From the NCBI GenBank assembly GCA_044369475.1, contig JBIPLV010000020.1, positions 1 through 23,409 of the forward strand: a stretch of 23,409 bases of DNA, read 5' to 3'. Each line of letters starts with the position of its first letter. Position 1 is the stretch's first letter. The DNA comes from Cyanobium sp. (GTDB lineage Bacteria > Cyanobacteriota > Cyanobacteriia > PCC-6307 > Cyanobiaceae). The position numbers and the translations under genes are program-made. Shown here piece by piece: positions 1-11,153 of the stretch. The notes under the pieces are model-generated. The model worked only from the letters and a program-made list of their open reading frames with translations. It was not told the origin of the DNA and did not search any database.

Positions 1-2850
1 ACGATCACGACGCTCCCGGATGGTGCGTTTGGAGAGATCGGATTGCTGGATGCCAATGCCAACAATGCTTTTGTGCCGGTGACGGCAGGACAGCAGCTGA
101 GCCTGGTGCAGATGCAGGGGCTGCAGTTCCGGGCGGCTGCGGATGCCTATGGCCCTGGCACCTTCACCTATGCGGTGAGCGATGGGGCAGCCGCTCAGGG
201 CGGCCTGACGACCACGGAGACCTTCACCATCAATGTGCTGGCGGTGAACGACGCCCCGGTGCGCACCTCGCCGGAGCTCGCGCCGCGTGTGATCAGCAAC
301 GCCGAGTTGGTTGTCGACCGCGCCACCAACCTGTATCAGACGGTGAGCGTTGGTCTGACCAACCTGCTGTTCAGTGCCGGTGGCGACGCCCTCGAGCAGG
401 CGAGCCAGCAGCTCCTTTACCGCATCTCCCGGCTTCCGAATGCCGCCATCGGCCAGATGTTGCTGGCCGATGGCACCGTGGTGCTCAATGGCAACACCTA
501 CACCCTGCCCCAGCTGCGTGATCTGATCTTCAGGCCAGCCCGCGGCGTCGAGACGCTCACGGCTGCCGAACGGCTCGGTGAACTGCGCCTGGAGATGACC
601 GATACCCCGTCGCCGGGAAGTGATCCGGCTCGCACCACGGAGCTCAAGGTGCCGATCCTGATCGACACCAACAAGGCTTCAGGCCGTGCCGGCGTGCGCA
701 TTGCCGGGCTCACCAGCGATGAGCAAGCGATTCAGGCGGTGCTGCGTCTGGATCCCACTAACCCAGACACCGGATTCCAGGATCCTGCCGTTGGCAACGG
801 CAACGGCAACGCCCCCTCAGCTGGCCAGGCCAAGGGGCTCAACACCTCTCTCTACAGCCAGCTGGAAAGCAACAACCCTCTCTATCTGGCGGCCATCGGC
901 GGCAACAAGATTCTTGATGGCCAGGAGGTTAACTACGCGCCTTCAGCGGTGCCATTCCTGTTTGATCTGCCAATCACCGCCTGGACCCCCACCAGCTGGG
1001 CCAAGGGTGGCCCTGATCCCACCCACACCCTGCTGTATCGCTCAACCCTCTCAGGCCAGCTGCGCAGCAACGACGAGCTCACCTACACGGTGATTGATAC
1101 GGTGACTGACCCCGCACCGGCGGGATTCACGCTCTCCAGCAGTGGGGCCTGGAGTTTTGATCCCCTCCATACTGCCTACGCCGCCGGGCTGACCACCGAA
1201 GGGGCCACCCAACAGGTTACCGCGCGCTACATGGCCGGCACCCGCCCGGGCGAGATCACCATCGAATTGCGCCGCACCGCCACCACCGTGATCGCCGAAG
1301 TGGTGGGCAACGTCGGCGCCACGACCACCAGCCGCGGTGATTGGATCGCCGCCAACCCCGAAGGCCGCGACAAAGATCGCTACTTTAAATATGTCTCTGA
1401 ATACGTGCTCACCTCTTACGGTGCGCTCGACACCGGCGAGAGAAACGAGGCTGGCGAGAAGATCTTTGCCTGGAGTGGGCCAATCGAGACCGCTGATGGC
1501 CAGCCGATGCGCCAGCTCGATGGAACCCCGATCACCACGGCTGGGTATTACGACTTCACCCGGCGAGGCGGCGCGGGTGACGGAGTGGAGTTCATTTATG
1601 AATCCATCACCGAGAAAGGCAAGCAAGTAAATTACATTATTGGCATGCGCTTCTTCCTGCGCAACAATGTATTTGGAGATAACGATCCTTCACGCACCAA
1701 CATCCGCGATCCAGGGGCCCCGGTCACAATCCTGCGGGAGCTTGGCGTAATTACGAATATCATGCAAAACGAAATCACTCGAATTGGCGCGTCTTCGATT
1801 GGGGCGTCTTCGATTACCACCATGCCTCTAATCAATGCGCCGTTACTAAATCTGGCGACCACCAACCTCACTCAGCAAAGCATCGCTGCCACAGCCAATG
1901 CGCTCTTGGCCTTAGGTTCAGCTGGCAGCCAATCCAGCGAAGCAACACCTCAGGCCCTTGGAGCCGAGAATGGCAATGGCGCGGGAATTGGCGACAGCAG
2001 CAATGATGGTGCGAATGATGGCGCGGCGGCAGGAGGCCGAGGCCAGGGTGACGGAGGTGACTCCACAAACGACCATCTGGGCAAAGGGGCTGGTGATCGC
2101 GGCCTCAGGCTTGATCCTCAGCTGACGCTGGCCACCATCAACACAGCCCCAGACTCCCTACTAGACAGCCTGAGCGATACGAGCATCCTTGGCGCCAACC
2201 TGCTTGATGCCCTGACGCTCGGAGCGGGTCTCCTGTATCTGCTCTATGGGCCGAGGTCGATTGACCAGAGCAGGCGCGGACTTCGCGGGTGGTTGGCCGG
2301 TGCTGCTAATGCGGGCCGTCGCCCATCCGCAGCTGCAGCAGAGCAGCAGGTGCTGTCCCTGCTGCTAACCCGTCAGAACGATGGATCCCTGAGCATCGTG
2401 GCGGCTCAGATCACCATGAGCGGCGTCAAGCTGCTAGCCCAGCACGATTTGGCATCGGCAGCTGGCGATGAAGCCGCACTTCAACAGGCTCTGAGCGAGC
2501 TGATGACGAACTTGAACCAGAAAGGTGCCCACTACGATCTTCTGTTGCTCGATGGACAGCTTGATCGGGCTGTTAGCGCGGCTGAGCAAAACATTGCCGG
2601 CCTGGCGAAGCAGCGGCTTCCCTTGGCCCCAGCTGAGCTGTCCGCTGCGGTAGCTGCAGCAAGCCCGTCTGAATTTGCCGCCCTTCAGCAGTGGCTCAAC
2701 AAACCGTCTCTGATCCTGCCGCCAGAGTCGCCGGTTGCCCAATCATTGGCGCGTCGTCGTGCGGCCTATGGCCAAATCCTGGCCACTGAGCAAGCACAGA
2801 TGGCAGCGATGATCGAGCTGAGCCTGGCGCTGACCTGGTCCCAACGCTGA
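1..2850 (+). CDS. C-terminal ~950 aa of a very large repetitive secreted/cell-surface protein (cadherin-like/VCBS-type repeats); the 5' end lies outside the window
   Basis: Frame 1 is open from nt 1; the track 'M' at 43 is a TTG, so the gene continues upstream. Two copies of a giant-adhesin-type repeat are present (..LPDGAFGEIGLLD..GTFTYAVSDG..TFTINVLAVNDAPV; ..RISRLPNAAIGQMLLADGTVVL..). An 'AGFTLSSSGAWSFDP' VCBS-like segment follows, then a beta-sandwich terminal motif GDNDPSRTNIRDPGAPV (~1666..1725). After these come a Q/S/A linker, a Gly/Asp-rich stretch (~1961..2103), a hydrophobic helix LLDALTLGAGLLYLLYGP (~2185..2253) and a ~195-aa Ala/Leu/Gln-rich helical C-terminus. Stop codon at 2848..2850. 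Confidence 0.75.
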   Translation, partial: TITTLPDGAFGEIGLLDANANNAFVPVTAGQQLSLVQMQGLQFRAAADAYGPGTFTYAVSDGAAAQGGLTTTETFTINVLAVNDAPVRTSPELAPRVISNAELVVDRATNLYQTVSVGLTNLLFSAGGDALEQASQQLLYRISRLPNAAIGQMLLADGTVVLNGNTYTLPQLRDLIFRPARGVETLTAAERLGELRLEMTDTPSPGSDPARTTELKVPILIDTNKASGRAGVRIAGLTSDEQAIQAVLRLDPTNPDTGFQDPAVGNGNGNAPSAGQAKGLNTSLYSQLESNNPLYLAAIGGNKILDGQEVNYAPSAVPFLFDLPITAWTPTSWAKGGPDPTHTLLYRSTLSGQLRSNDELTYTVIDTVTDPAPAGFTLSSSGAWSFDPLHTAYAAGLTTEGATQQVTARYMAGTRPGEITIELRRTATTVIAEVVGNVGATTTSRGDWIAANPEGRDKDRYFKYVSEYVLTSYGALDTGERNEAGEKIFAWSGPIETADGQPMRQLDGTPITTAGYYDFTRRGGAGDGVEFIYESITEKGKQVNYIIGMRFFLRNNVFGDNDPSRTNIRDPGAPVTILRELGVITNIMQNEITRIGASSIGASSITTMPLINAPLLNLATTNLTQQSIAATANALLALGSAGSQSSEATPQALGAENGNGAGIGDSSNDGANDGAAAGGRGQGDGGDSTNDHLGKGAGDRGLRLDPQLTLATINTAPDSLLDSLSDTSILGANLLDALTLGAGLLYLLYGPRSIDQSRRGLRGWLAGAANAGRRPSAAAAEQQVLSLLLTRQNDGSLSIVAAQITMSGVKLLAQHDLASAAGDEAALQQALSELMTNLNQKGAHYDLLLLDGQLDRAVSAAEQNIAGLAKQRLPLAPAELSAAVAAASPSEFAALQQWLNKPSLILPPESPVAQSLARRRAAYGQILATEQAQMAAMIELSLALTWSQR
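1783..1812 (+). repeat. 15-bp in-frame tandem duplication inside the giant protein gene (IGASS IGASS)
   Basis: attggcgcgtcttcg / attggggcgtcttcg, two adjacent units with 1 mismatch, located in a locally AT-richer patch (about 1620..1900). Confidence 0.8.
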
Positions 2851-2863
2851 GCACCTACCGAGC

Positions 2864-3343
2864 TCAACGGCAGCGCTGGTCGAGAGCGACGATCACCATT
2901 GGTATCGCACGTGGGTGGGATTGCATCGAAAACGCCTCACGCTCAACTTCAAAACTGACAGTTCGGTAGTTCATGTAAAGCAGGCCGCTGATTTCACGCT
3001 CGATCTTGTGGTCAAGATCAATGCTCCAACCAATCGGCTTGAGGCGACCTTTGGGGCAGCCCTGGGCGGCATGCACCGCTTCATGAATCAAGGTGGCGCG
3101 CACAATGCCCAGTTCGATGCTGATCGGTGCAATCCAAATGCGCCGCTTCCTACTATCCGTTAATCCATAGGCACCTTGCAGCGGTGGCTTCTCAAATGTC
3201 ACTCGGTAGCGAGCTCGCTTAAGGGCAGCGAGCAGGGGTTGCAGCTCGACAGGTATCGCTGGTGCAGCAGCACGGGCAACTGGCAGCGACATTGGCAACA
3301 CCAGAAGCAACAGCAGCCGCGTCAACAGAAAAAGAGCGCTCAT
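2864..3343 (-). CDS. Small secreted HExxH protein (putative zinc metallopeptidase-like), last gene of the operon
   Basis: The ATG at 3343..3341 overlaps the upstream stop (caATGAgc). It yields a classic signal peptide, MSALFLLTRLLLLLVLPMSLPVARA/AAP. The motif LIHEAVHAAQGC is of the HExxHxxQ type and is reminiscent of DUF4157-like metallopeptidase domains. The longer ATG at 3403 would lie 64 nt inside the upstream gene and would bury the signal peptide. Confidence 0.55.
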   Translation of the reverse strand: MSALFLLTRLLLLLVLPMSLPVARAAAPAIPVELQPLLAALKRARYRVTFEKPPLQGAYGLTDSRKRRIWIAPISIELGIVRATLIHEAVHAAQGCPKGRLKPIGWSIDLDHKIEREISGLLYMNYRTVSFEVEREAFSMQSHPRAIPMVIVALDQRCR

Positions 3344-4014
3344 TGCACGGTCAGACTCCGGCCGGCAGTGCTCCAGAAGTTGACAGGTTTGTCCGCATAC
3401 CATGGCTCCCAGCCCAGGCGCACACCGTGCTGTTGAGCCTTGGCCTTGATGGTCCGATACACGCTGAAGCCGTCGCTTTCGACCACCACAAAGACGGATT
3501 GCTTGTTGCGCGCCATCGTCGCCATCGTGCGATCAAGCCAGTCGCTGCCACCCTTGAGATCCGCCGCTGCCACCGTGGGAGGGCCCACACTCTGGAGACT
3601 GCCCTGCGTGTGACTCACACGCACAAGGATCGGCCCCACCTGCTGCTGGCGCATCCAGTCATCCAACGCAGCGTTGCACTGCTGCTCAGCCACGCCCTGA
3701 AGAGTCGTACAGCGTTTGACGGCCGCTGCCCGTTCGCGGTCGATCTGCACCATCTGATTGACCGCGGGTTGCAGAGACCAAATCCCTCTGGCATTCGCCT
3801 GCAGCAAATAAAAATCCTGCTGCGACTTACGGGCCATCGGAGCCTGAATGTTGAGGCTTCCAGCCGCCGCAAAGACACTCATCAATGAGGTAATGAGGGC
3901 GAGCACACCAACCACGTTGGTCAGCGTATCGAGCAAGCCGACGTCATCGCTCATAAGCCGCTGACCCTGCTGACGGTGATGCCGTCTCAACAGGAGCAAC
4001 AAAGCATTGCTCAT
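3340..4014 (-). CDS. ExbD/TolR-like membrane protein, paralogue 2 (enlarged periplasmic domain)
   Basis: The ATG at 4014..4012 overlaps the upstream TGA (ccATGAgc). It has a single N-terminal TM with an Asp in ExbD position (VGLLDTLTNVVGVLALITSLMSVF). The C-terminus has an ExbD-like layout (SVFVVVESDGFSVYRTIKAKAQQHGVRLGWEPW). It shares the terminal signature LGWEPW / LGYEP with the neighbouring paralogue. Confidence 0.55.
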   Translation of the reverse strand: MSNALLLLLRRHHRQQGQRLMSDDVGLLDTLTNVVGVLALITSLMSVFAAAGSLNIQAPMARKSQQDFYLLQANARGIWSLQPAVNQMVQIDRERAAAVKRCTTLQGVAEQQCNAALDDWMRQQQVGPILVRVSHTQGSLQSVGPPTVAAADLKGGSDWLDRTMATMARNKQSVFVVVESDGFSVYRTIKAKAQQHGVRLGWEPWYADKPVNFWSTAGRSLTVQ

Positions 4015-4484
4015 GGCATTTCGGCGCCAGACGTCGCTGGCGGTGGCTGCACGGTCCACTGGGGATCAAGAGGCTCATACCCAAGCGTGATGCCCTTGGC
4101 TTCGGCCTGGGAACGCACCAGATGGAACTCGGGATAGGTGCTTGGCTTCACGCCGATCACCAGATACTGCGGTGTGCTGGCTTTGGCGATACGATCCAGA
4201 AAAGCGGCCCATTGCGGGCTCGCAATCGTGGTGCGCTCTTGGCGGCCATCCGCCAATAAATCCAACGTACCGTTCCCCTGCAGCAGCACATAGTTGGCCA
4301 CCTTGCCCTGGTTGTTGCCACCGCTGCCACTGGGGATAAATTGAACAGCCTGTCCACCCGGTTTGATCTGCAGAGCGATAATCCCGATCAACAGAGTCTG
4401 CACACCGATCGTTGCTGCCATGATATTCATGAACGCAAACAGATCAACGCCCACAGTCGTTCTCATGCGAAGTCGGCGTGCCAT
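4011..4484 (-). CDS. ExbD/TolR-like membrane protein, paralogue 1
   Basis: The ATG at 4484..4482 shares 1 nt with the upstream TGA (cgcTGATGgca); the track start at 4499 is a TTG. The N-terminal TM carries the conserved Asp (TVGVDLFAFMNIMAATIGV; compare E. coli ExbD TPFIDVMLVLL). The periplasmic part has the ExbD layout (YLVIGVKPSTYPEFHLVRSQAEAKGITLGYEP). Confidence 0.6.
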   Translation of the reverse strand: MARRLRMRTTVGVDLFAFMNIMAATIGVQTLLIGIIALQIKPGGQAVQFIPSGSGGNNQGKVANYVLLQGNGTLDLLADGRQERTTIASPQWAAFLDRIAKASTPQYLVIGVKPSTYPEFHLVRSQAEAKGITLGYEPLDPQWTVQPPPATSGAEMP

Positions 4485-5776
4485 CAGCGCCAGGGCCAAC
4501 GACGCTGCGGGCGGCTCAGCGGCAACTGTTCAATCCGTTGCAACTGAGCGATCAGCTGTTCGATAGAACGGCGCAACTCAATGCTGGCCTTGAGACTGGT
4601 GAGCTCCTCGCCAAGGACCCCACTGAGGGTGCTGGCACTCTTCAACTCACGCAGCAACGGCTGGAGCTGCTGCAAAGAATGGTTGAGCTCTAGGGCGGCA
4701 CCATCCATGCTGCTACGGATGATCTGGGCTTGCTCCTGCAGACTCAGGCGTGCTTCTGCAACACCCTCCACCGAGTCACGCACCAAAGCAGTGAGTGGGC
4801 TGAGCTTGGCCAGGGCAGCTTCGGTGAGCTGTTCGGCATAACGCTGAGCCGGTGATACCAACACAGAGGGATCGGGGAGGTGCTGCTCAAAAGCGTCGTT
4901 GATCAGGGCCGCGAGTTGACTGGATTGAAGATCGAGAGGTCCCGGCAGTGGAGCACCGGGAGACTCACCCATCGGGCTGAGCACCAGCACCGCATCCCGA
5001 ACGCGACCATCAATGGCATTCAGCAGCTTCTCTTCACGACGCTCGACACCGTTCATGGGTATCGCCAGCAGAACCGAGATCACCAAAGCCAGATAAGTGG
5101 TATCAAAAGCGGTACCCAGTCCGCCAGTCACCTTGGTCAGACCAGCTTTGAGGCCATCGACGTTGTCGGCATTGCCCAACACCCCTTCAAAGGAGCCAAC
5201 AGCCTGAGACATGCCGATCACGGTGCCGATGAACCCGAGGATCGGAATAGCCCACAGCAGCACCCTCACAAGGCTGTAGCTGTTCTGCAGGGCCAGTTGG
5301 TAGAGATCACTGTCTGCATCAGCTGCGCGCTCCAACTGAAACGATGACTGACTCGTTCGCCACACCGACAACAGCCGCAGCAAGCGCTTGCCCACCAACG
5401 ACGACGATTGTTCAGCTCGCTGGGCTGCGGCCTCGATATCACCAGTCCTCAGCAGCGTTGTGATGCTCTGATCGAGCTGTTGCAGTTTGCGCTGCTGTCG
5501 TGCCAGCAACTGCCACTTACTGACCAGAAAGGCGCCAATCATGCCGGCAGCAACCAAACAGACAACCTGGGTTGGGCCGCGCTGGTGCAGGAACAAGTGC
5601 AAGGGCGCACCGACAGGAGACGTGCTCGCCCAAAGCAAAAATCCGATAAGACCACCAATTGCCCCCCAGCGGCTTATGCGGGGATCCAGGTCACTGCCCG
5701 ATCCAAGGTTTGCAGACTCCCCTGGTGACGGGGTCACTGAGGTGGTGTCGGTGAAAGGTGGGAAATTAGCGATCAT
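4484..5776 (-). CDS. MotA/TolQ/ExbB-family ion-channel protein with a long (~175 aa) C-terminal helical tail
   Basis: Family signature helices are present: WAIPILGFIGTVIGMSQAV (compare ExbB APFVGLFGTVWGIMNSF) and GGLGTAFDTTYLALVISVLLAIPMNG (compare GIAEALLATAIGLVAAIPAVVIYN). Hydrophobic segments lie upstream (WGAIGGLIGFLLWA; VVCLVAAGMIGAFLV), followed by a charged loop. After the last TM come a Pro-rich linker and a Leu/Gln/Glu-rich helical tail (about 4487..5011). The first ATG is at 5776; the track start at 5797 is a TTG. Confidence 0.75.
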   Translation of the reverse strand: MIANFPPFTDTTSVTPSPGESANLGSGSDLDPRISRWGAIGGLIGFLLWASTSPVGAPLHLFLHQRGPTQVVCLVAAGMIGAFLVSKWQLLARQQRKLQQLDQSITTLLRTGDIEAAAQRAEQSSSLVGKRLLRLLSVWRTSQSSFQLERAADADSDLYQLALQNSYSLVRVLLWAIPILGFIGTVIGMSQAVGSFEGVLGNADNVDGLKAGLTKVTGGLGTAFDTTYLALVISVLLAIPMNGVERREEKLLNAIDGRVRDAVLVLSPMGESPGAPLPGPLDLQSSQLAALINDAFEQHLPDPSVLVSPAQRYAEQLTEAALAKLSPLTALVRDSVEGVAEARLSLQEQAQIIRSSMDGAALELNHSLQQLQPLLRELKSASTLSGVLGEELTSLKASIELRRSIEQLIAQLQRIEQLPLSRPQRRWPWR

Positions 5777-5811
5777 GGCGCTGAACCTGAGCAACAAGAA
5801 TCAAAAAAGGG

Positions 5812-6156
5812 TCAGCGCTCCTCGCTGCCATCCCACTCCTTCCACTCCACCTCGACATCGCCGAGTTGGCTAACAGCTGGCGGTGGAATCCGGCTGAGCA
5901 GATCGTTGGGGAGACCCAGCCTTTGAAAGACCGACTGGCGCTGCTCCACAGACATCCCAGAAAACGAACGAACCACATCACGAATTCGGTGCTCATTATA
6001 AACTAGCTTCATCAATTCGACCTGATCCTGTGCCTCAAGCTCACGAAACCATTGCATAAAGCGCTCGATCCTGCTTTGCAGATCAGTCGCGGTCATTTCC
6101 GTGGTCTTTTCCATGGTCTTTTCAGTGGTCATTTCAGTGGTCTTTTCAGTGGTCAT
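5812..6156 (-). CDS. Small acidic soluble protein of unknown function with an N-terminal TTEK/TTEM tandem repeat
   Basis: This 114-aa ORF sits between hlyD and the ExbB-like gene on the same strand. It has no TM or signal peptide. The N-terminus MTTEKTTEMTTEKTMEKTTEMT is encoded by a 12-bp tandem array. The remainder looks helical (FMQWFRELEAQDQVELMKLVY..) and the C-terminus is acidic. No family was recognised. Confidence 0.5.
   Translation of the reverse strand: MTTEKTTEMTTEKTMEKTTEMTATDLQSRIERFMQWFRELEAQDQVELMKLVYNEHRIRDVVRSFSGMSVEQRQSVFQRLGLPNDLLSRIPPPAVSQLGDVEVEWKEWDGSEER
6091..6156 (-). repeat. 12-bp tandem repeat, 5.5 units, at the 5' end of the small ORF
   Basis: Plus-strand units GGTC(A/T)TTTC(C/A)(G/A)T at 6091, 6103, 6115, 6127 and 6139, plus a half unit at 6151..6156. 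The array is in frame and generates several in-frame ATG codons. Confidence 0.9.
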
Positions 6157-6218: not shown

Positions 6219-7367
6219 CTATTCGCTATTGGAGCGAATGCGTCGTAGAGAATCAAACATCTTGTCAGTAGCATCAGTTAGCAGTGTGATCACGCGCTTC
6301 TCGCGCAGAATTAGATTCACTTGCACGCTCTGGCCAGAGCTCACAGGAAACCGTTGGGATCCCCGGCTCAGATAATCGCGATCCAGCTTCACGTAGGCCG
6401 GAAAGCGTGGTTGGGGGTTTTGCTCGTCGGGAGGCAATGGCAGGGTTCCAATCATTTTGAGCGAGCCTGAAATGGATCCAAACTGGGTGAATGGAAAGGT
6501 ATCAACTCGAATCTGGGCCGGCATGCCCTGCTTCACAAAGCCCACATCCCGGTTGCTGAGATAGACCTTGGCTTCCAGAACCCCACCAGGCACAATCTTC
6601 GCCAGGGTTTCACCAGCGCTAGCGGCATAGCCAGGGCTGGAGGGCACCAGGCCAAACACCACCCCTGAGAGCGGTGCTCGCAGCACCTCCTTGTCCTGAG
6701 TATCCCTAACCTCGGTCAGCTGGCGGTCGAGGTCGGCCAGCTCCCGCAGCGATTCTTGCTTCATCTTCAGGAGCTGGGCTTCAACCTCCTGAAGGTTGGA
6801 TCGCGACTGAGCGATTTCGGATTCCAGCTGCTCAACCTTGTTACGCTGCTGCAGCAGCTGCAATTTCTGGATGCCGCCCTGGGAGGCGAGGGGGGCGATC
6901 TGGCTATAGATGAGTTTTTCAGTGCGAAGCAGCCGCGTTAAACCATCAGTGCGCTCCCTCAGACTTTGGGCTTTGGCTTCGATTGAGCGAGTCTCTTCAT
7001 TAAAACGGGTGCGCTCAAGCTGAATCTGTTCCCTGAGGGTGTCGGCCCGCTTTCCGGACACGTCGGGATCAAGCCGCAGTAGCTCCTGATTAGCGCTGAC
7101 CTGCTGGCCCTCCCTGACAAGAATTTGCTTCACAACCCCAGCAAAAGGAGCCTTAATCGGCCGCTCAGCACCCAGCGGCTGTAGCTCACCAGGAGCGAGC
7201 ACCACTTCATCTATTTTGGCAAAGATGGCATAGATGAAAGCCAAACATGCCGTACCGATGATGGTCCAGATCAGAGCCTGACTCCAAACAGGGGTGGGCT
7301 TGAGTCGCACCTCCTGAGGATTGACTGGTCGGACCGTCAGAGCTGAGCTCATCGCTTTGTTGGCCAT
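6219..7367 (-). CDS. HlyD-family membrane fusion protein (T1SS periplasmic adaptor)
   Basis: It has an N-terminal TM (WSQALIWTIIGTACLAFIYAIFA) and a lipoyl/hairpin entry (APFAGVVKQILVREGQQVSANQELLRLD). A long coiled coil follows, then a beta-barrel C-terminus (VLRAPLSGVV..; MPAQIRVDTFP). The ATG lies 3 nt after the ABC gene stop. Confidence 0.9.
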   Translation of the reverse strand: MANKAMSSALTVRPVNPQEVRLKPTPVWSQALIWTIIGTACLAFIYAIFAKIDEVVLAPGELQPLGAERPIKAPFAGVVKQILVREGQQVSANQELLRLDPDVSGKRADTLREQIQLERTRFNEETRSIEAKAQSLRERTDGLTRLLRTEKLIYSQIAPLASQGGIQKLQLLQQRNKVEQLESEIAQSRSNLQEVEAQLLKMKQESLRELADLDRQLTEVRDTQDKEVLRAPLSGVVFGLVPSSPGYAASAGETLAKIVPGGVLEAKVYLSNRDVGFVKQGMPAQIRVDTFPFTQFGSISGSLKMIGTLPLPPDEQNPQPRFPAYVKLDRDYLSRGSQRFPVSSGQSVQVNLILREKRVITLLTDATDKMFDSLRRIRSNSE

Positions 7368-7370
7368 GGC

Positions 7371-10300
7371 TCAGCCCACCTCCTGCTGGTGATAGAGGGT
7401 GGCGTAGCGCCCGTCGAGCTGCATCAGCTCCGTGTGGTTGCCGATCTCCACCAACATCCCCTGATCCATCACCAGAATCATGTCTGCATGACGCAGGGAG
7501 GCCAGCCGGTGGGTGATAAAGCACACGGTCTGGTTCTGGTAAGCCTCCTTCAGGTTGGCGGTCAAGCGTCGTTCAGTGTCCACATCAAGAGCACTTGTTG
7601 CTTCATCAAGCACCAGGAGGCGAGGTTTACGCAGAATCATGCGCGCGATCGCGAGCCGTTGCCGCTGGCCGCCACTCAAGCCCGCACCCCTCTCACCCAC
7701 GGAGCTGGTGTAGCCACCCGGCATGGCCTGAATGAAATCGTGGGCGCATGCGATCTGGGCTGCTTGGCACACGTCCTCAAAGCTGGCATCGGGCCGAGTC
7801 AAGGCGATGTTGGAGAGGATCGAGCCGTCAAACAACAGACTGTCCTGGGGCACCACACCGATCTGGGCCCTCAGAGAATAAAGATCAACCTTGCTGATGT
7901 CGTTTCCGTCGATGCGGATCGTGCCCTCGAGTGGTTCGTAGAGGCGCGTAATCAGCTTCAACAAAGTGCTCTTGCCAGAACCGCTGCTGCCCACCACGCC
8001 CACAAATGATCCCGCGGGGATCTTGAAGTTGATATTGCTAAGCTGAAGACCGCCCTGGCTGCCAAAACGAAAGCTCACACCGTTGTATTCCACTTCTCCC
8101 AAAATTGGGGGAATGGGCGGTTTCTGTTCTCCCATGATTTCGAGCTCTTCGGGATAATCAACAATGTCCGCAAGGCGCTCGAGCGAAAGGGCTGTTTCCT
8201 GGAAGTTCTGCCAGAGGTTGGCCAACCGCAGCAGTGGATTGGTGACATAACTAGCCAGAATTCGGAAGGCAATCAGCTGCCCGAGGGTCAGCTCACCCTT
8301 GAGCACCAGCGAGGCTCCCACCCAGAGCACCAGCAGGCCGGAAAGTTGCTCCAGAAACTGGCTGGCTGAGCCCGCCGCCGTGCTCGTGATCACATTGCGG
8401 AAGCCTGACTGGATCTGACTTCCATACAGTTGCTGCCAGCGCCAGCGGCTGTGCAGCTCCATGCTCTGACCCTTCACCGTTTCCATACCGCCCAGAGTCT
8501 CAACCAGATGGCTCTGCACCCGCGCGTTGGCCTCGGCCTGATCGCGCAGCTGCTTGCGAATCAGTGGCGCGCTGAGCAGGGTCACACCCACGAAAAATGG
8601 CACCACAGCCAAAGCCCAGAAGGTGAGCTGAATCGAGTAGAGAAGCATCACGGCGATGTAGATCACCGCGAACACAGCATCAAGGATCACGGTGAGCGCC
8701 GTACCCGTCAGGAAGCGGCGGATCTTCTCAAGCTCATTGATGCGGCTACTGACCTCTCCAACCGGCCGATCAGCGAAGTAGCCGAGCGGCAACCGCAAGA
8801 GGTGATCAATGATCGTCGCCCCCAGGGTGATATCGATGCGGTTCGTCGTATCCGAAAACAGATAGGTGCGCAGCGAGGCCAGCACTCCCTGAGCCAGGGC
8901 CATGCCCACCAGCAAGGTGCCAAGCACATTGAGGGTGCTGATGTTGCCCTGGCTGATTACAGCATCGATGATTTGCTGAATCAGCAGAGGATTCAGCAAG
9001 GCAAACAGCTGCACAAAGAAGCTCGCCACCAACACCTGCACCAGCACGGCCTTGTGCTGTTGCAGAGCCGGCAGGAACCAGGCCAGGCCGAAGCGCTTCT
9101 TTGGGGTGCGAGCGCTGCGCTCGACACACAGCACATCGAGCAGGTTGTCGTCATTCCAACCTGTCAGGGATCGGGCCGCCACCAATCCCTGGCCGGCCAC
9201 AGGATCACCCAGCATCAGCTGACCGCTTTGATCAATCTCCCAGATCACCACCGGTCCACTCGTGCCCAGAGCCAGCGCAGGCAAGGGCAGGCGTCTGAGC
9301 TGTGTTTCATTGACCTGCATGGGTGAGGCCCGCAGCCCCATCAGATCGGCGATCGCCGCCAACTGCAGCAGCCCGATGCCTTGGCCCTGGCTGTCGCGCG
9401 CGAGCTGGTCTTCAAGGATGCGGCGAAGCACATCGCGCCTGAAAGGGAGGTCAAATTGCCGGGCCAACATGCGCAGACAAGCCAGCGGCACGTCCACCGG
9501 CCCTTCACCGCTGAGGTGGGGGTAGCTTCCGTCGTCCCCAAGGCGGCCATACCAATCTTCAAGAGCCTGCTGCTGTTGCTCGATCGCCACAATTGCGGTC
9601 GAGCTCTCCTGCCAGTCAGGTTCGAGCAGTTCAGCTTCAGCAGGCTGGGCATCCCGTGCGCCAGCGTCTGGTGACACCACCAGTGCAGCAGGTCGTGCGA
9701 TGGGCGGGCTCGCAGCCTGTTTGGCTAGAAGCCGGGCCGGCAGTTTCCCGCGCACATGGAGTTTGAGCGGACCCAGGATTTCCTCGCCGGGCTTGAGCCC
9801 CGCCACGTTGCTGCTGCTCAGCAACCAGGGCCCCCAGTCAGCATCAAAGCTGTGCTCCCCGGGTGGAACCAGCAGAACCTGTTGACGTTCAGAGGATTCG
9901 GTGAGCTGGTTGCTCGCCCAGTCGCGCAGAACCAACCGCTCCGGGGTACGCGGCGAGGGGCTCGCAGCGGCAACGGCATACAACTCCTCGAGGTTGGGCT
10001 GTGCAAGGGCTCGCGACAGCACCTCATCAGCGGATACGGCTTCGAGAAATGTGTGCTGAGGCATCAGCCACAGCTGGCTGGGCAGGGCAGCAGCCACGGC
10101 CTGCCCGGTGACCCCGCGCAGCAACCCCACCTGGCCCACCATGTCGCCAGGGCCGAGCCGCTGCAAAGTGAACGGCTCGTTGCGTTCATCGAGACCCAAT
10201 AGTCTGAGTTGGCCCTGAGCGACCAGGGCGACGCCGGGCGGAAGCGCGGCGTAGTCATAGAGCTTCTGGCCAGGGCGCAGCTTCAGGGCTTGCAGAGAAT

Positions 10301-10394
10301 CGGCCAGCTGCGCCTGCGTCGTTTCGGGTAGTTGAGAAAACGGTGCCCACGCCCTCAGGACCCGAAGGGCCAAAGTGAGTTGCAGCGGGGGCAC
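7371..10394 (-). CDS. T1SS-type ABC exporter (1007 aa): N-terminal cNMP-binding-like domain, C39-like domain, 6-TM domain and NBD
   Basis: Walker A GVVGSSGSGKSTLLKLI, signature LSGGQRQRLAIARMIL, Walker B LLVLDEATSALD and H-loop FITHRL are all present. The N-terminus has a beta-roll of cNMP-binding type (LRPGQKLYDY..GVALVAQGQLRLLG..LGPGDMVGQVGLLRG). The C39-like segment is PVDVPLACLRMLARQFDL. The start codon is GTG at 10394. Confidence 0.92.
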   Translation of the reverse strand: MPPLQLTLALRVLRAWAPFSQLPETTQAQLADSLQALKLRPGQKLYDYAALPPGVALVAQGQLRLLGLDERNEPFTLQRLGPGDMVGQVGLLRGVTGQAVAAALPSQLWLMPQHTFLEAVSADEVLSRALAQPNLEELYAVAAASPSPRTPERLVLRDWASNQLTESSERQQVLLVPPGEHSFDADWGPWLLSSSNVAGLKPGEEILGPLKLHVRGKLPARLLAKQAASPPIARPAALVVSPDAGARDAQPAEAELLEPDWQESSTAIVAIEQQQQALEDWYGRLGDDGSYPHLSGEGPVDVPLACLRMLARQFDLPFRRDVLRRILEDQLARDSQGQGIGLLQLAAIADLMGLRASPMQVNETQLRRLPLPALALGTSGPVVIWEIDQSGQLMLGDPVAGQGLVAARSLTGWNDDNLLDVLCVERSARTPKKRFGLAWFLPALQQHKAVLVQVLVASFFVQLFALLNPLLIQQIIDAVISQGNISTLNVLGTLLVGMALAQGVLASLRTYLFSDTTNRIDITLGATIIDHLLRLPLGYFADRPVGEVSSRINELEKIRRFLTGTALTVILDAVFAVIYIAVMLLYSIQLTFWALAVVPFFVGVTLLSAPLIRKQLRDQAEANARVQSHLVETLGGMETVKGQSMELHSRWRWQQLYGSQIQSGFRNVITSTAAGSASQFLEQLSGLLVLWVGASLVLKGELTLGQLIAFRILASYVTNPLLRLANLWQNFQETALSLERLADIVDYPEELEIMGEQKPPIPPILGEVEYNGVSFRFGSQGGLQLSNINFKIPAGSFVGVVGSSGSGKSTLLKLITRLYEPLEGTIRIDGNDISKVDLYSLRAQIGVVPQDSLLFDGSILSNIALTRPDASFEDVCQAAQIACAHDFIQAMPGGYTSSVGERGAGLSGGQRQRLAIARMILRKPRLLVLDEATSALDVDTERRLTANLKEAYQNQTVCFITHRLASLRHADMILVMDQGMLVEIGNHTELMQLDGRYATLYHQQEVG

Positions 10395-10424: not shown

Positions 10425-11153
10425 TTAAAGGACTTGTCGCGATTCGGGCGGAATGACGTCTTGATTCAACAATTGATATCCCAGCTCCAGGAGAAGTCTT
10501 CTGCGCATCTGTTGATCGAGGATGGCAGGCTTGCTCTCTTCAAGCCGAACAAGGATCCAGCCCTGCTGAATCGGCTTGGGGGGCCAGAGCTGGCCGGGCT
10601 GGCTCACCCGCAGCAATTGAGCTAACCCCTCTGGCAACTCCGACAGGGCGACAGGTCCCTGCTCTCCTCGGGGGCCGAGGTCGGGCTGAGCTGGTAGCTG
10701 TTGCAACAATGCCTCAAAACTAATTTCGCCTTCTTTAATCTGCATGTAGAGCTCCGAGCAGAGCTCCTGCTCAGCAATCGGCAGAACTGTGTAAGTCACT
10801 TCATCAAGGTCTTTCTTCCGCTGAAGGAAATAGCTCGCCAGTTTTTTGCCAAAATGCTGCTCGCACACCTGCAGCCAGAGGTGATGGCGCCGGGCACGGG
10901 TCACGAGCTCGGCCTCTCCAACACCCTCCTGCAACATCCATTGCTGCACGGCTGCTGGTGCATGGAGTCCAAGATCGGCCAGGTAGACCTGAACTTGAGC
11001 CGCAAGCTCCGCTTCACTGAGGGACTCGACTGAGCCAACAACGTCGGCTAGCCAGCGCTGGCGTTTCAGCTCAAGCTGCACCCGCCCCGCCAGGCCAAGC
11101 GCTTGCAAGAGTTCCATCGACAAGGCTGTCGAAGATGCTGAGGATTGGCTCAC
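10425..11153 (-). CDS. Parvulin/PpiC-type peptidyl-prolyl isomerase-like protein (cyanobacterial T1SS-associated type)
   Basis: The C-terminal half fits a parvulin layout (YTVLPIAEQELCSELYMQIKEGEISFEALLQQ..GPVALSELPEGLAQLL..PGQLWPPKPIQQGWILVRLEE). No signal peptide is seen. From memory, similar genes sit next to cNMP/peptidase-domain ABC plus HlyD pairs in cyanobacteria. The start is GTG at 11153; an alternative ATG is at 11117. Confidence 0.5.
   Translation of the reverse strand: MSQSSASSTALSMELLQALGLAGRVQLELKRQRWLADVVGSVESLSEAELAAQVQVYLADLGLHAPAAVQQWMLQEGVGEAELVTRARRHHLWLQVCEQHFGKKLASYFLQRKKDLDEVTYTVLPIAEQELCSELYMQIKEGEISFEALLQQLPAQPDLGPRGEQGPVALSELPEGLAQLLRVSQPGQLWPPKPIQQGWILVRLEESKPAILDQQMRRRLLLELGYQLLNQDVIPPESRQVL

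Follow-up and report, generated by a model that had tools for sequence, protein, structure and literature searches.

A long-tailed ExbB/TolQ-type A-subunit of cyanobacteria with a putative tethered cytoplasmic arm, gene-linked to a secretion operon in picocyanobacteria

The gene analysed in this study encodes a long-tailed ExbB/TolQ-type A-subunit and lies at positions 4484..5776 on the minus strand of a 23,409-nucleotide stretch of Cyanobium sp. DNA (assembly GCA_044369475.1, contig JBIPLV010000020.1, positions 1 to 23,409), which is called the window below and has a G+C content of 64%. The gene was called as an open reading frame (ORF) of 430 amino acids (aa) plus a stop codon and is backed by Pfam and fold matches. 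Motors of the ExbB/TolQ/MotA family are driven by ion flow, and the mechanical work that they perform serves flagella, gliding, the import of nutrients, the integrity of the envelope, and phage defence. The original prediction, made from the sequence alone, had described an ExbB/TolQ-family channel protein carrying a cytoplasmic helical tail of about 175 residues. I found that this tail is conserved and that the gene is followed by two genes for TolR/ExbD-like subunits, here called D1 and D2. The explanation that I consider the best overall, and hold with moderate confidence, is that the three genes make up a motor module of the ExbB/TolQ branch that has a tethered cytoplasmic arm and is linked to secretion in picocyanobacteria.

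The A-subunit belongs to the MotA/TolQ/ExbB proton-channel family. Residues 140-254 match Pfam MotA_ExbB (PF01618) with an E-value of 9.8e-11 and 41.9 bits (cut-off 22.9). An AlphaFold2 model, based on an alignment of 55 sequences, has a mean predicted local distance difference test (pLDDT) score of 74, while most of the core is above 85. In a Foldseek search of the PDB with this model, the top matches were the TolQ/ExbB chains 9ddm_E, 9avi_A, and 5sv0 (probability 1.0, E about 3e-3), and MotA and ZorA chains ranked below them. In a profile alignment, residues 176-258 map to residues 136-209 of Escherichia coli TolQ (230 aa), and 172 residues follow the aligned core in the cyanobacterial protein as compared with about 21 in E. 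coli TolQ. Thus, both the family and the approximate tail length had been read correctly, and the quoted motifs were all found where they had been placed: IPILGFIGTVIGM corresponds to residues 177-189 and GLGTAFDTTYLALVISVLLAIPMN to residues 219-242, while SPMGESPGAPLPGPLDL, the Pro-rich linker, corresponds to residues 267-283. A whole-protein sequence search of the PDB gave no match, and none of the NCBIfam naming models for TolQ, ExbB, and MotA matched the A-subunit at E <= 0.01.

The core (5039..5575, minus strand) was delimited by hydropathy peaks and by the TolQ alignment. It consists of a membrane helix (residues 68-90), a cytoplasmic helical loop (91-168), and two further membrane helices (169-190 and 221-246). 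The column entropy of the A-subunit is lowest in this core, whose motifs are WAIPxLGFIGTV and GLGTAFDTT. An extra hydrophobic helix is located at the N-terminal side (residues 34-51; 5624..5677, minus strand), which AlphaFold models as a helix with pLDDT 85-90 and which has a counterpart in all aligned homologues. This segment would be a fourth membrane helix, and the N-terminus would then be cytoplasmic.

Is the tail a genuine part of this gene? The same minus-strand ORF may be read from a TTG codon (4484..5797) or from the ATG codon at 5776, which gives the 430-aa protein. Because the N-terminal sequence MIANFPP is kept in orthologues, the ATG codon at 5776 is taken to be the true start. These residues 1-7 (5756-5776, minus strand) are strongly conserved while the following 15 or so residues are highly variable, and the conserved MIANFPP suggests a short N-terminal interaction motif. 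A search with the whole protein found 652 homologues, and the best 120 of the 652 are all 420-460 aa in length with 94-100% query coverage; the architecture is common to more than 120 orthologues. The lengths and coverage of the homologues, together with the selection data described below, rule out a fusion, a frameshift, or a two-gene artefact, and the A-subunit with its tail is best regarded as one real gene. The original prediction had itself named the ways in which it could fail, namely a disordered tail, an unconserved tail, or an ORF that is really two genes or a fusion; each of these was checked and none was found.

The conservation of the tail and its anatomy are established. The stretch from residue 292 to residue 418 spans exactly 126 residues with zero indels in 121 of 121 aligned sequences. 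A codon comparison with an orthologue of 95% identity gave 18 synonymous and 5 amino-acid-changing differences in the tail and 37 and 11, respectively, in the core; on this evidence, the tail is under purifying selection equal to that on the core. In the AlphaFold2 model, the last membrane helix runs to residue 266 and is followed by disorder at 270-284, a helix at 285-298, a break at 299-306, and a long helix at 307-416, the last of which has pLDDT 57-80. Four parts of the tail (all on the minus strand) can be distinguished. The flexible tether (residues 267-284; 4925..4978) is rich in Pro, Gly, and Ser and was recognised by its low pLDDT (below 50 at 270-284, which is modelled as disordered) and its variable length. 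Among 121 orthologues, the stretch between P268 and I292 can be as short as 18 or as long as 46 residues, with a G/S/A/E-rich composition (G 17%, S 13%, and A 13%). Next comes the conserved proximal tail (residues 285-358; 4703..4924), which was delimited by entropy and comprises a short helix, the element LPDPSVLVxPA, and the start of the long helix. From residue 288 to residue 358, the column entropy is close to that of the membrane core and many polar residues are invariant, while LPDPSVLVxPA is an invariant, non-helical element that other cyanobacteria also have. The distal helical stalk (residues 359-418; 4523..4702), a part of the modelled helix 307-416, is heptad-like and variable in sequence, yet fixed in length. 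The protein ends with a basic-aromatic tip, PLSRPQRRWPWR (4487..4522), for which the family consensus is RRxWxW and in which W429 is conserved in at least 90% of the sequences.

The tip and the stalk differ between lineages. The equivalents of the tip are KPRRITLVE in other cyanobacteria and KPRRRWF in planctomycetes, and a basic C-terminal tip reaches the planctomycete and verrucomicrobial homologues. The stalk of other cyanobacteria is longer than that of picocyanobacteria by about 55 residues, located in the middle of the stalk. The tail has conserved ends and a middle whose length differs between lineages but is fixed within one, as may be expected of a spacer arm.

The heptad-like, Leu/Gln/Glu/Ala-rich character that had been ascribed to the tail was borne out in part. 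The hydrophobic periodicity over residues 307-416 peaks at 3.5-3.6 residues, and the hydrophobicity power at periods of 3.4-3.7 is 66, while shuffled sequences gave 20 +/- 11 and only 2 of 2000 shuffles reached 66. The periodicity is thus beyond chance, and the stretch runs to residue 418. On the other hand, the tail does not consist of uniform heptads: residues 288-358 have core-like conservation and include the non-helical LPDPSVLVxPA, and three conserved prolines (P309, P327, and P373) sit inside the modelled long helix; only the distal part resembles a generic coiled coil. Remote-homology searches with the tail alone returned nothing but generic coiled coils. A Pfam scan at E <= 10 gave only chance matches (DUF720 and Mis12), and the proximal tail has no sequence match in Pfam or the PDB. 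The tail profile matched designed coiled coils, coronavirus spike heptad repeats, IncA, and prefoldin among PDB sequences, and when 15 tails were compared with Pfam, DUF948 was found in 9 of the 15 (best E 7.4e-5) along with other coiled-coil families. These remote matches reflect generic coiled-coil similarity, with no specific homologue among them.

The two genes following the A-subunit gene encode its putative axle. D1 (4011..4484, minus strand; 157 aa) is the first TolR/ExbD-like single-pass subunit, assigned by a fold match to TolR, and lacks the membrane Asp residue. D2 (3340..4014, minus strand; 224 aa) is the second TolR/ExbD-like single-pass subunit, assigned as a paralogue of D1; its membrane Asp is invariant and a pair of Cys residues is conserved, and it is likewise called at 224 aa in orthologous loci. 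Each combines a basic N-terminus with a single membrane helix and an alpha/beta domain in the periplasm. An hhalign comparison gave a probability of 99.1% (E 6e-19), and D1 and D2 are paralogues. The best PDB match of the D1 model (pLDDT 78.6) was E. coli TolR 5by4 (E 1.3e-3, probability 1.0). In D2, the invariant Asp lies in LLDxLxN and is aligned to Asp23 of TolR, while D1 has Asn or Ser at this position in most of the aligned cyanobacterial sequences and Asp in one. The presence of the Asp only in D2 implies that the axle carries the ion at a single site. For the D1 family, 1122 matches were found, and some of the relatives are labelled ExbD by the Joint Genome Institute (JGI) and UniRef. 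No OmpA/MotB-type domain was found in D1 or D2 by Pfam and PDB profile searches.

The E. coli TolQ-TolR and ExbB-ExbD pairs resemble this module in the shared Pfam family, in being the best structural matches of the core, and in having a TolR-like single-pass partner gene directly after the A-subunit gene. The cyanobacterial module differs from them in its extra N-terminal membrane helix, in the far longer stretch after the aligned core, in having two distinct B-subunit genes, one of which lacks the essential Asp, and in having no TolA/TonB-type partner nearby. The Myxococcus AglR-AglQ-AglS system also has the three-gene composition of one TolQ-like A-subunit and two different TolR-like B-subunits. 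No gliding-machinery genes lie beside the cyanobacterial module, and the comparison holds at the family level. AglRS has been grouped with non-flagellar generic ion transporters (PMC12505986). The same survey noted that extensions at the N- and C-termini are frequent in non-flagellar A-subunits, and for this reason a long tail as such is not new. On the other hand, no description of the long-tailed A-subunit family, of a mixed axle, or of a picocyanobacterial secretion-motor operon was found in the literature searched.

How widely is the module distributed? A profile search covering 1.84 billion representatives clustered at 50% identity found 3178 relatives (185 of them at E <= 1e-30), mostly 400-800 aa in length. 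Among the 150 that were listed, 143 align through the last membrane helix, and the median length after this helix in these 143 closest 50%-identity representatives is 205 residues. Thus, the tail is long when compared with canonical TolQ, as had been stated, but it is not rare in this branch. The element LPxPExL[IV]EPA marks a cyanobacterial subset of the relatives, and the tail including this element is also present in cyanobacterial homologues that have no secretion genes nearby. By scanning genome contigs, I found the triplet of the A-subunit, D1, and D2 in 22 of the 23 non-picocyanobacterial cyanobacterial loci examined, and clustering of the neighbouring ORFs in these 23 loci gave no recurrent neighbour other than D1 and D2. 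One verrucomicrobial locus also has two D-like genes. The cultured carriers include Crocosphaera watsonii, Gloeothece citriformis PCC 7424, and Lyngbya aestuarii, and the annotation is always generic. No copy of the A-subunit was found in the viral contig collection. Probably, the triplet is a module in its own right, of old origin and wide occurrence in cyanobacteria, with relatives in planctomycetes and verrucomicrobia. The planctomycete and verrucomicrobial homologues (L042 9455-10921, L071 6352-7677, L058, and L062) have a zinc-ribbon (CxxC...CxxC) on the N-terminal side of the first membrane helix, and these zinc-ribbon homologues share the basic-aromatic C-terminal tip. In a Nostocales sequence (AP018170.1; L085 and L086, 1-11175), a triplet of 466, 153, and 231 aa directly follows a type III-B CRISPR Cmr set (Cmr2/Cas10, Cmr3, and RAMPs) on the same strand.

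In picocyanobacteria, the module is linked to genes for type I secretion, and this gene linkage is established. The gene order is a peptidyl-prolyl isomerase (PPIase)-like protein, an ATP-binding cassette (ABC) exporter, an HlyD-type adaptor, a small cytoplasmic protein, the A-subunit, D1, D2, a small exported protein here called X3, and, convergent with them, a large repeat protein. The same order of eight genes, adjoining large cadherin/Big proteins, recurs in all picocyanobacterial loci whose flanks are long enough to show it (L001-L005 and L087-L090). The stop and start codons overlap between the A-subunit and D1 genes (TGATG, 4482-4486), between the D1 and D2 genes (ATGA, 4011-4014), and between the D2 and X3 genes (ATGA, 3340-3343). 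These three overlaps suggest translational coupling and fixed subunit ratios. The placement of the module in one operon with an ABC exporter and an adaptor, beside the gene for a giant repetitive protein, is an arrangement of the SiiAB type and was found only in picocyanobacteria. No account of the picocyanobacterial cluster was found in the literature searched.

The flanking genes of the window are as follows. The PPIase-like protein (10425..11153, minus strand) is encoded by the first gene of the conserved cluster and has weak matches including Rotamase_2 and TIGR04500, all below the cut-offs. The HlyB-type ABC exporter (7371..10394, minus strand) has the Pfam domains cNMP_binding, Peptidase_C39, ABC_membrane, and ABC_tran and matches TIGR01846 with 686 bits (cut-off 725). 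Its N-terminal cyclic-nucleotide-binding domain lies ahead of the weakly matching C39-like domain, and export may be gated by a cyclic nucleotide. The HlyD-type membrane fusion protein for type I secretion (6219..7367, minus strand) matches Pfam HlyD_3 and NCBIfam TIGR01843 (E 3.9e-49). The small cytoplasmic protein (5812..6156, minus strand; 114 aa), called from its ORF and limited to picocyanobacteria, has N-terminal TTEK/TTEM repeats and no Pfam family, and its gene always lies directly upstream of the A-subunit gene in picocyanobacterial loci. It opens with imperfect copies of these repeats (MTTEKTTEMTTEKTMEKTTEM), which are followed by a conserved helical body without a known family; tblastn matches to its orthologues start at residues 18-25 and leave the repeat part uncovered.

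X3 (2864..3343, minus strand; 159 aa), also found only in picocyanobacteria, has a signal-peptide-like N-terminus, the sequence HEAVH (HExxH), and a weak match to the metallopeptidase family DUF6782 (E 4e-4, below the cut-off). By loose analogy with LapG acting on LapA, X3 could be an exported protease that acts on the giant protein. The large repeat protein (1..2850, plus strand), whose frame is open from base 1, runs off the left edge of the window, which contains its C-terminal 949 residues, and has a VNDAP repeat signature and a weak tandem-95 match. Its gene is convergent with the operon, and the protein is a candidate secretion substrate. Towards its end, this protein has a stretch rich in Gly, Asp, and Asn, a hydrophobic segment (LLDALTLGAGLLYLLYGP), and a helical C-terminus rich in Ala, Leu, and Gln, with no classical RTX repeats at the end. 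Its counterparts range from 1334 to more than 3442 aa and have Cadherin and Big domains, for example in a Vulcanococcus genome, whose neighbourhood also matches the far side of the window; the window accordingly comes from a Cyanobium/Vulcanococcus-like picocyanobacterium. A gene called at 21365 aa, about twice the size of SwmB, comes after the cluster in Synechococcus sp. MIT S9452 (L001 17182-21338).

How might the module work? I infer the stoichiometry, the ion flow, the oligomerisation and partner of the tail, and the link to secretion. The A-subunit would belong to an ion-driven 5:2 rotary motor and is expected to be pentameric by homology. D1 and D2 would supply a heteromeric, asymmetric axle with the ion-carrying Asp on D2 only. 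With its variable, floppy tether and its fixed-length domain of 126 residues, the tail would be a cytoplasmic arm rather than a rigid shaft. The five stalks may form a bundle, which is plausible, or each may attach sideways to a partner or, via the tip, to the membrane; as a platform for assembly or regulation, they would report or gate the activity of the motor, with no torque transmission. In picocyanobacteria, the module is built into an operon with a type I pump, a small cytoplasmic protein, and an exported HExxH protein, and its most likely role there would be to let the membrane potential control how the giant protein is exported, retained, or released, in the manner of SiiAB with SiiE. 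The SiiAB proton channel is encoded in a type I secretion operon and controls the retention and release of SiiE (bioRxiv 10.1101/641415; PMC6272769). The likeness to SiiA-SiiB of Salmonella SPI-4, the nearest precedent in function, lies in the MotAB/ExbBD-like channel genes placed in an operon with an ABC exporter and an adaptor for a giant adhesin. SiiA is a single B-subunit with a peptidoglycan-binding MotB-like domain, whereas the cyanobacterial module has two TolR-like B-subunits without an OmpA/MotB-type domain and, unlike SiiAB, also occurs without secretion genes; the likeness is a functional one drawn from the gene setting.

Which proteins might the arm contact? The original prediction had proposed the N-terminal domains of the ABC exporter or the small acidic repeat protein as partners of the tail. 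These proteins adjoin the gene only in picocyanobacteria, while the tail is distributed more widely. The tail is far older than these lineage-specific neighbours, and therefore neither the exporter nor the small protein is likely to be its ancestral ligand, although they may be lineage-specific partners.

Several points weigh against the interpretation as a secretion-linked motor with a tethered arm. The TolR fold match of D1 is modest (TM-score 0.59 on the target), and the hhalign match of D1 to TolR is weak (E 0.033), though it is collinear and takes in the membrane helix and the greater part of the periplasmic domain. Neither D1 nor D2 has a Pfam ExbD match, and their profiles gave only chance matches among PDB sequences. 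The structure model is a monomer in which the tail is of limited confidence (pLDDT 57-80), and five parallel tethers could pass some torque. The link to secretion is one of gene order only and is confined to one lineage. Outside picocyanobacteria, the module has housekeeping or CRISPR genes for neighbours, and its ancestral role was therefore probably other than secretion. Furthermore, the Synechocystis sp. PCC 6803 genes sll0477-sll0478-sll0479 have the same gene pattern and are induced by iron starvation and treated as an ExbB-ExbD set for iron uptake (PMC4195498, PMC8634477), which speaks for a role in nutrient uptake rather than in secretion.

The last point leads to the most serious alternative, which I regard as possible but rather doubtful: the module would be an ordinary energiser of nutrient (iron) uptake and the counterpart of sll0477-0479, while the tail would be an embellishment and the secretion neighbourhood incidental. 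The sll0477-0479 genes encode an ExbB-like protein and two hypothetical proteins in one transcript that is 6.7-fold up in iron starvation (PMC4195498) and are listed as an exbB/exbD set (PMC8634477), a pattern that equals an ExbB-like protein plus D1 and D2; the ExbD labels of some D1 relatives point in the same direction. The likeness lies in the gene pattern, and the Synechocystis operon, being iron-regulated and discussed for iron uptake, has not been reported beside secretion genes. No Synechocystis protein was among the 120 matches listed when a Microcystaceae relative was the query. No gene for a TonB-like protein or a TonB-dependent receptor was found by Pfam among the 19 proteins of the window or as a recurrent neighbour in the 23 cyanobacterial loci, and the lack of an NCBIfam ExbB/TolQ match also speaks against this alternative. 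Purifying selection on the tail equal to that on the core is at odds with an embellishment, and the tight translational coupling inside the secretion operon is kept in all picocyanobacterial loci seen.

It is less likely still that the tail has no external partner and instead folds back on the cytoplasmic face of the motor, or lies on the membrane via its tip, as an autoinhibitory or assembly element. The long flexible tether would permit such a fold-back, the Arg/Trp-rich tip seems to resemble membrane-interface peptides, and no partner gene is conserved beyond D1 and D2. The monomer model has no fold-back, although a monomer model is weak evidence. In place of the Trp-rich tip, other cyanobacteria carry KPRRITLVE, which is not membrane-like, and a stalk length that is fixed within a lineage but much changed between lineages suits a spacer reaching something. 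The original prediction had pointed to ZorA, and a Zorya-like device, in which five tails form a rigid rotating shaft that carries an envelope signal to cytoplasmic effectors, for example in phage defence, seems very improbable. ZorA, the nearest structural precedent for an A-subunit with a tail, resembles the cyanobacterial protein in being a MotA/ExbB-family subunit with a long, helical, cytoplasmic C-terminal tail, and the tail studied here is also heptad-periodic; ZorA profiles (PADLOC) matched weakly (best E 3.2e-4), the ZorA chain 8qyd_A was among the fold matches, and the Nostocales triplet directly after the Cmr set might hint at defence. However, the profile matches reach only 11-18 bits, the best covering residues 165-357 of the query and positions 106-241 of the 683-position profile, and TolQ and ExbB outrank ZorA in the fold search. 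The tail of ZorA has several hundred residues and is continuous with the membrane helices, whereas the cyanobacterial tail has about 165 residues behind a disordered tether of 18-46 residues and is broken again at 299-306. PADLOC gave no match for D1, D2, X3, the small protein, or the large protein, and no ZorB-type peptidoglycan-binding partner and no ZorC/D/E-like gene was found. Across picocyanobacteria, the A-subunit gene is conserved vertically and in synteny rather than in an island-like manner, and the lack of copies in the viral contig collection also disfavours a defence device. Membership in Zorya was rejected on the lack of Zorya partner genes and the discontinuity of the tail with the membrane helices. 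Because the tether is floppy and variable, a second break follows, and Zorya partners are lacking, the tail is read as a tethered, probably self-associating arm with a role in assembly or regulation rather than a driveshaft, and the proposed ZorA-like transmission of rotation is weakened.

The branch described here is abundant, with more than 3000 representatives at 50% identity in cyanobacteria, planctomycetes, and verrucomicrobia, and is labelled only generically in databases. It combines three unusual features, namely the tethered cytoplasmic arm, two axle proteins with one Asp, and, in picocyanobacteria, the embedding in a secretion operon. It is only a faint possibility that these features define a distinct motor class, with a single-Asp asymmetric axle and a tethered coiled-coil arm, which acts in picocyanobacteria as the engine that couples membrane potential to giant-protein handling and possibly as the swimming motor of Synechococcus. 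The non-flagellar swimming of Synechococcus depends on the giant surface protein SwmB, and the source of energy for this swimming is listed as unknown (PMC7004002); a copy of such a cluster in motile marine Synechococcus could be the motor. Giant surface proteins of picocyanobacteria have been proposed to help shield the cells from threats such as grazers (PMC4949707). If the secretion link is true, the module would be a second, independent example, after Salmonella SiiAB, of the membrane potential controlling a giant adhesin, and its setting would be some of the most abundant phototrophs on Earth. The module also offers a natural system in which to ask whether a 5:2 motor runs with one ion-carrying site.

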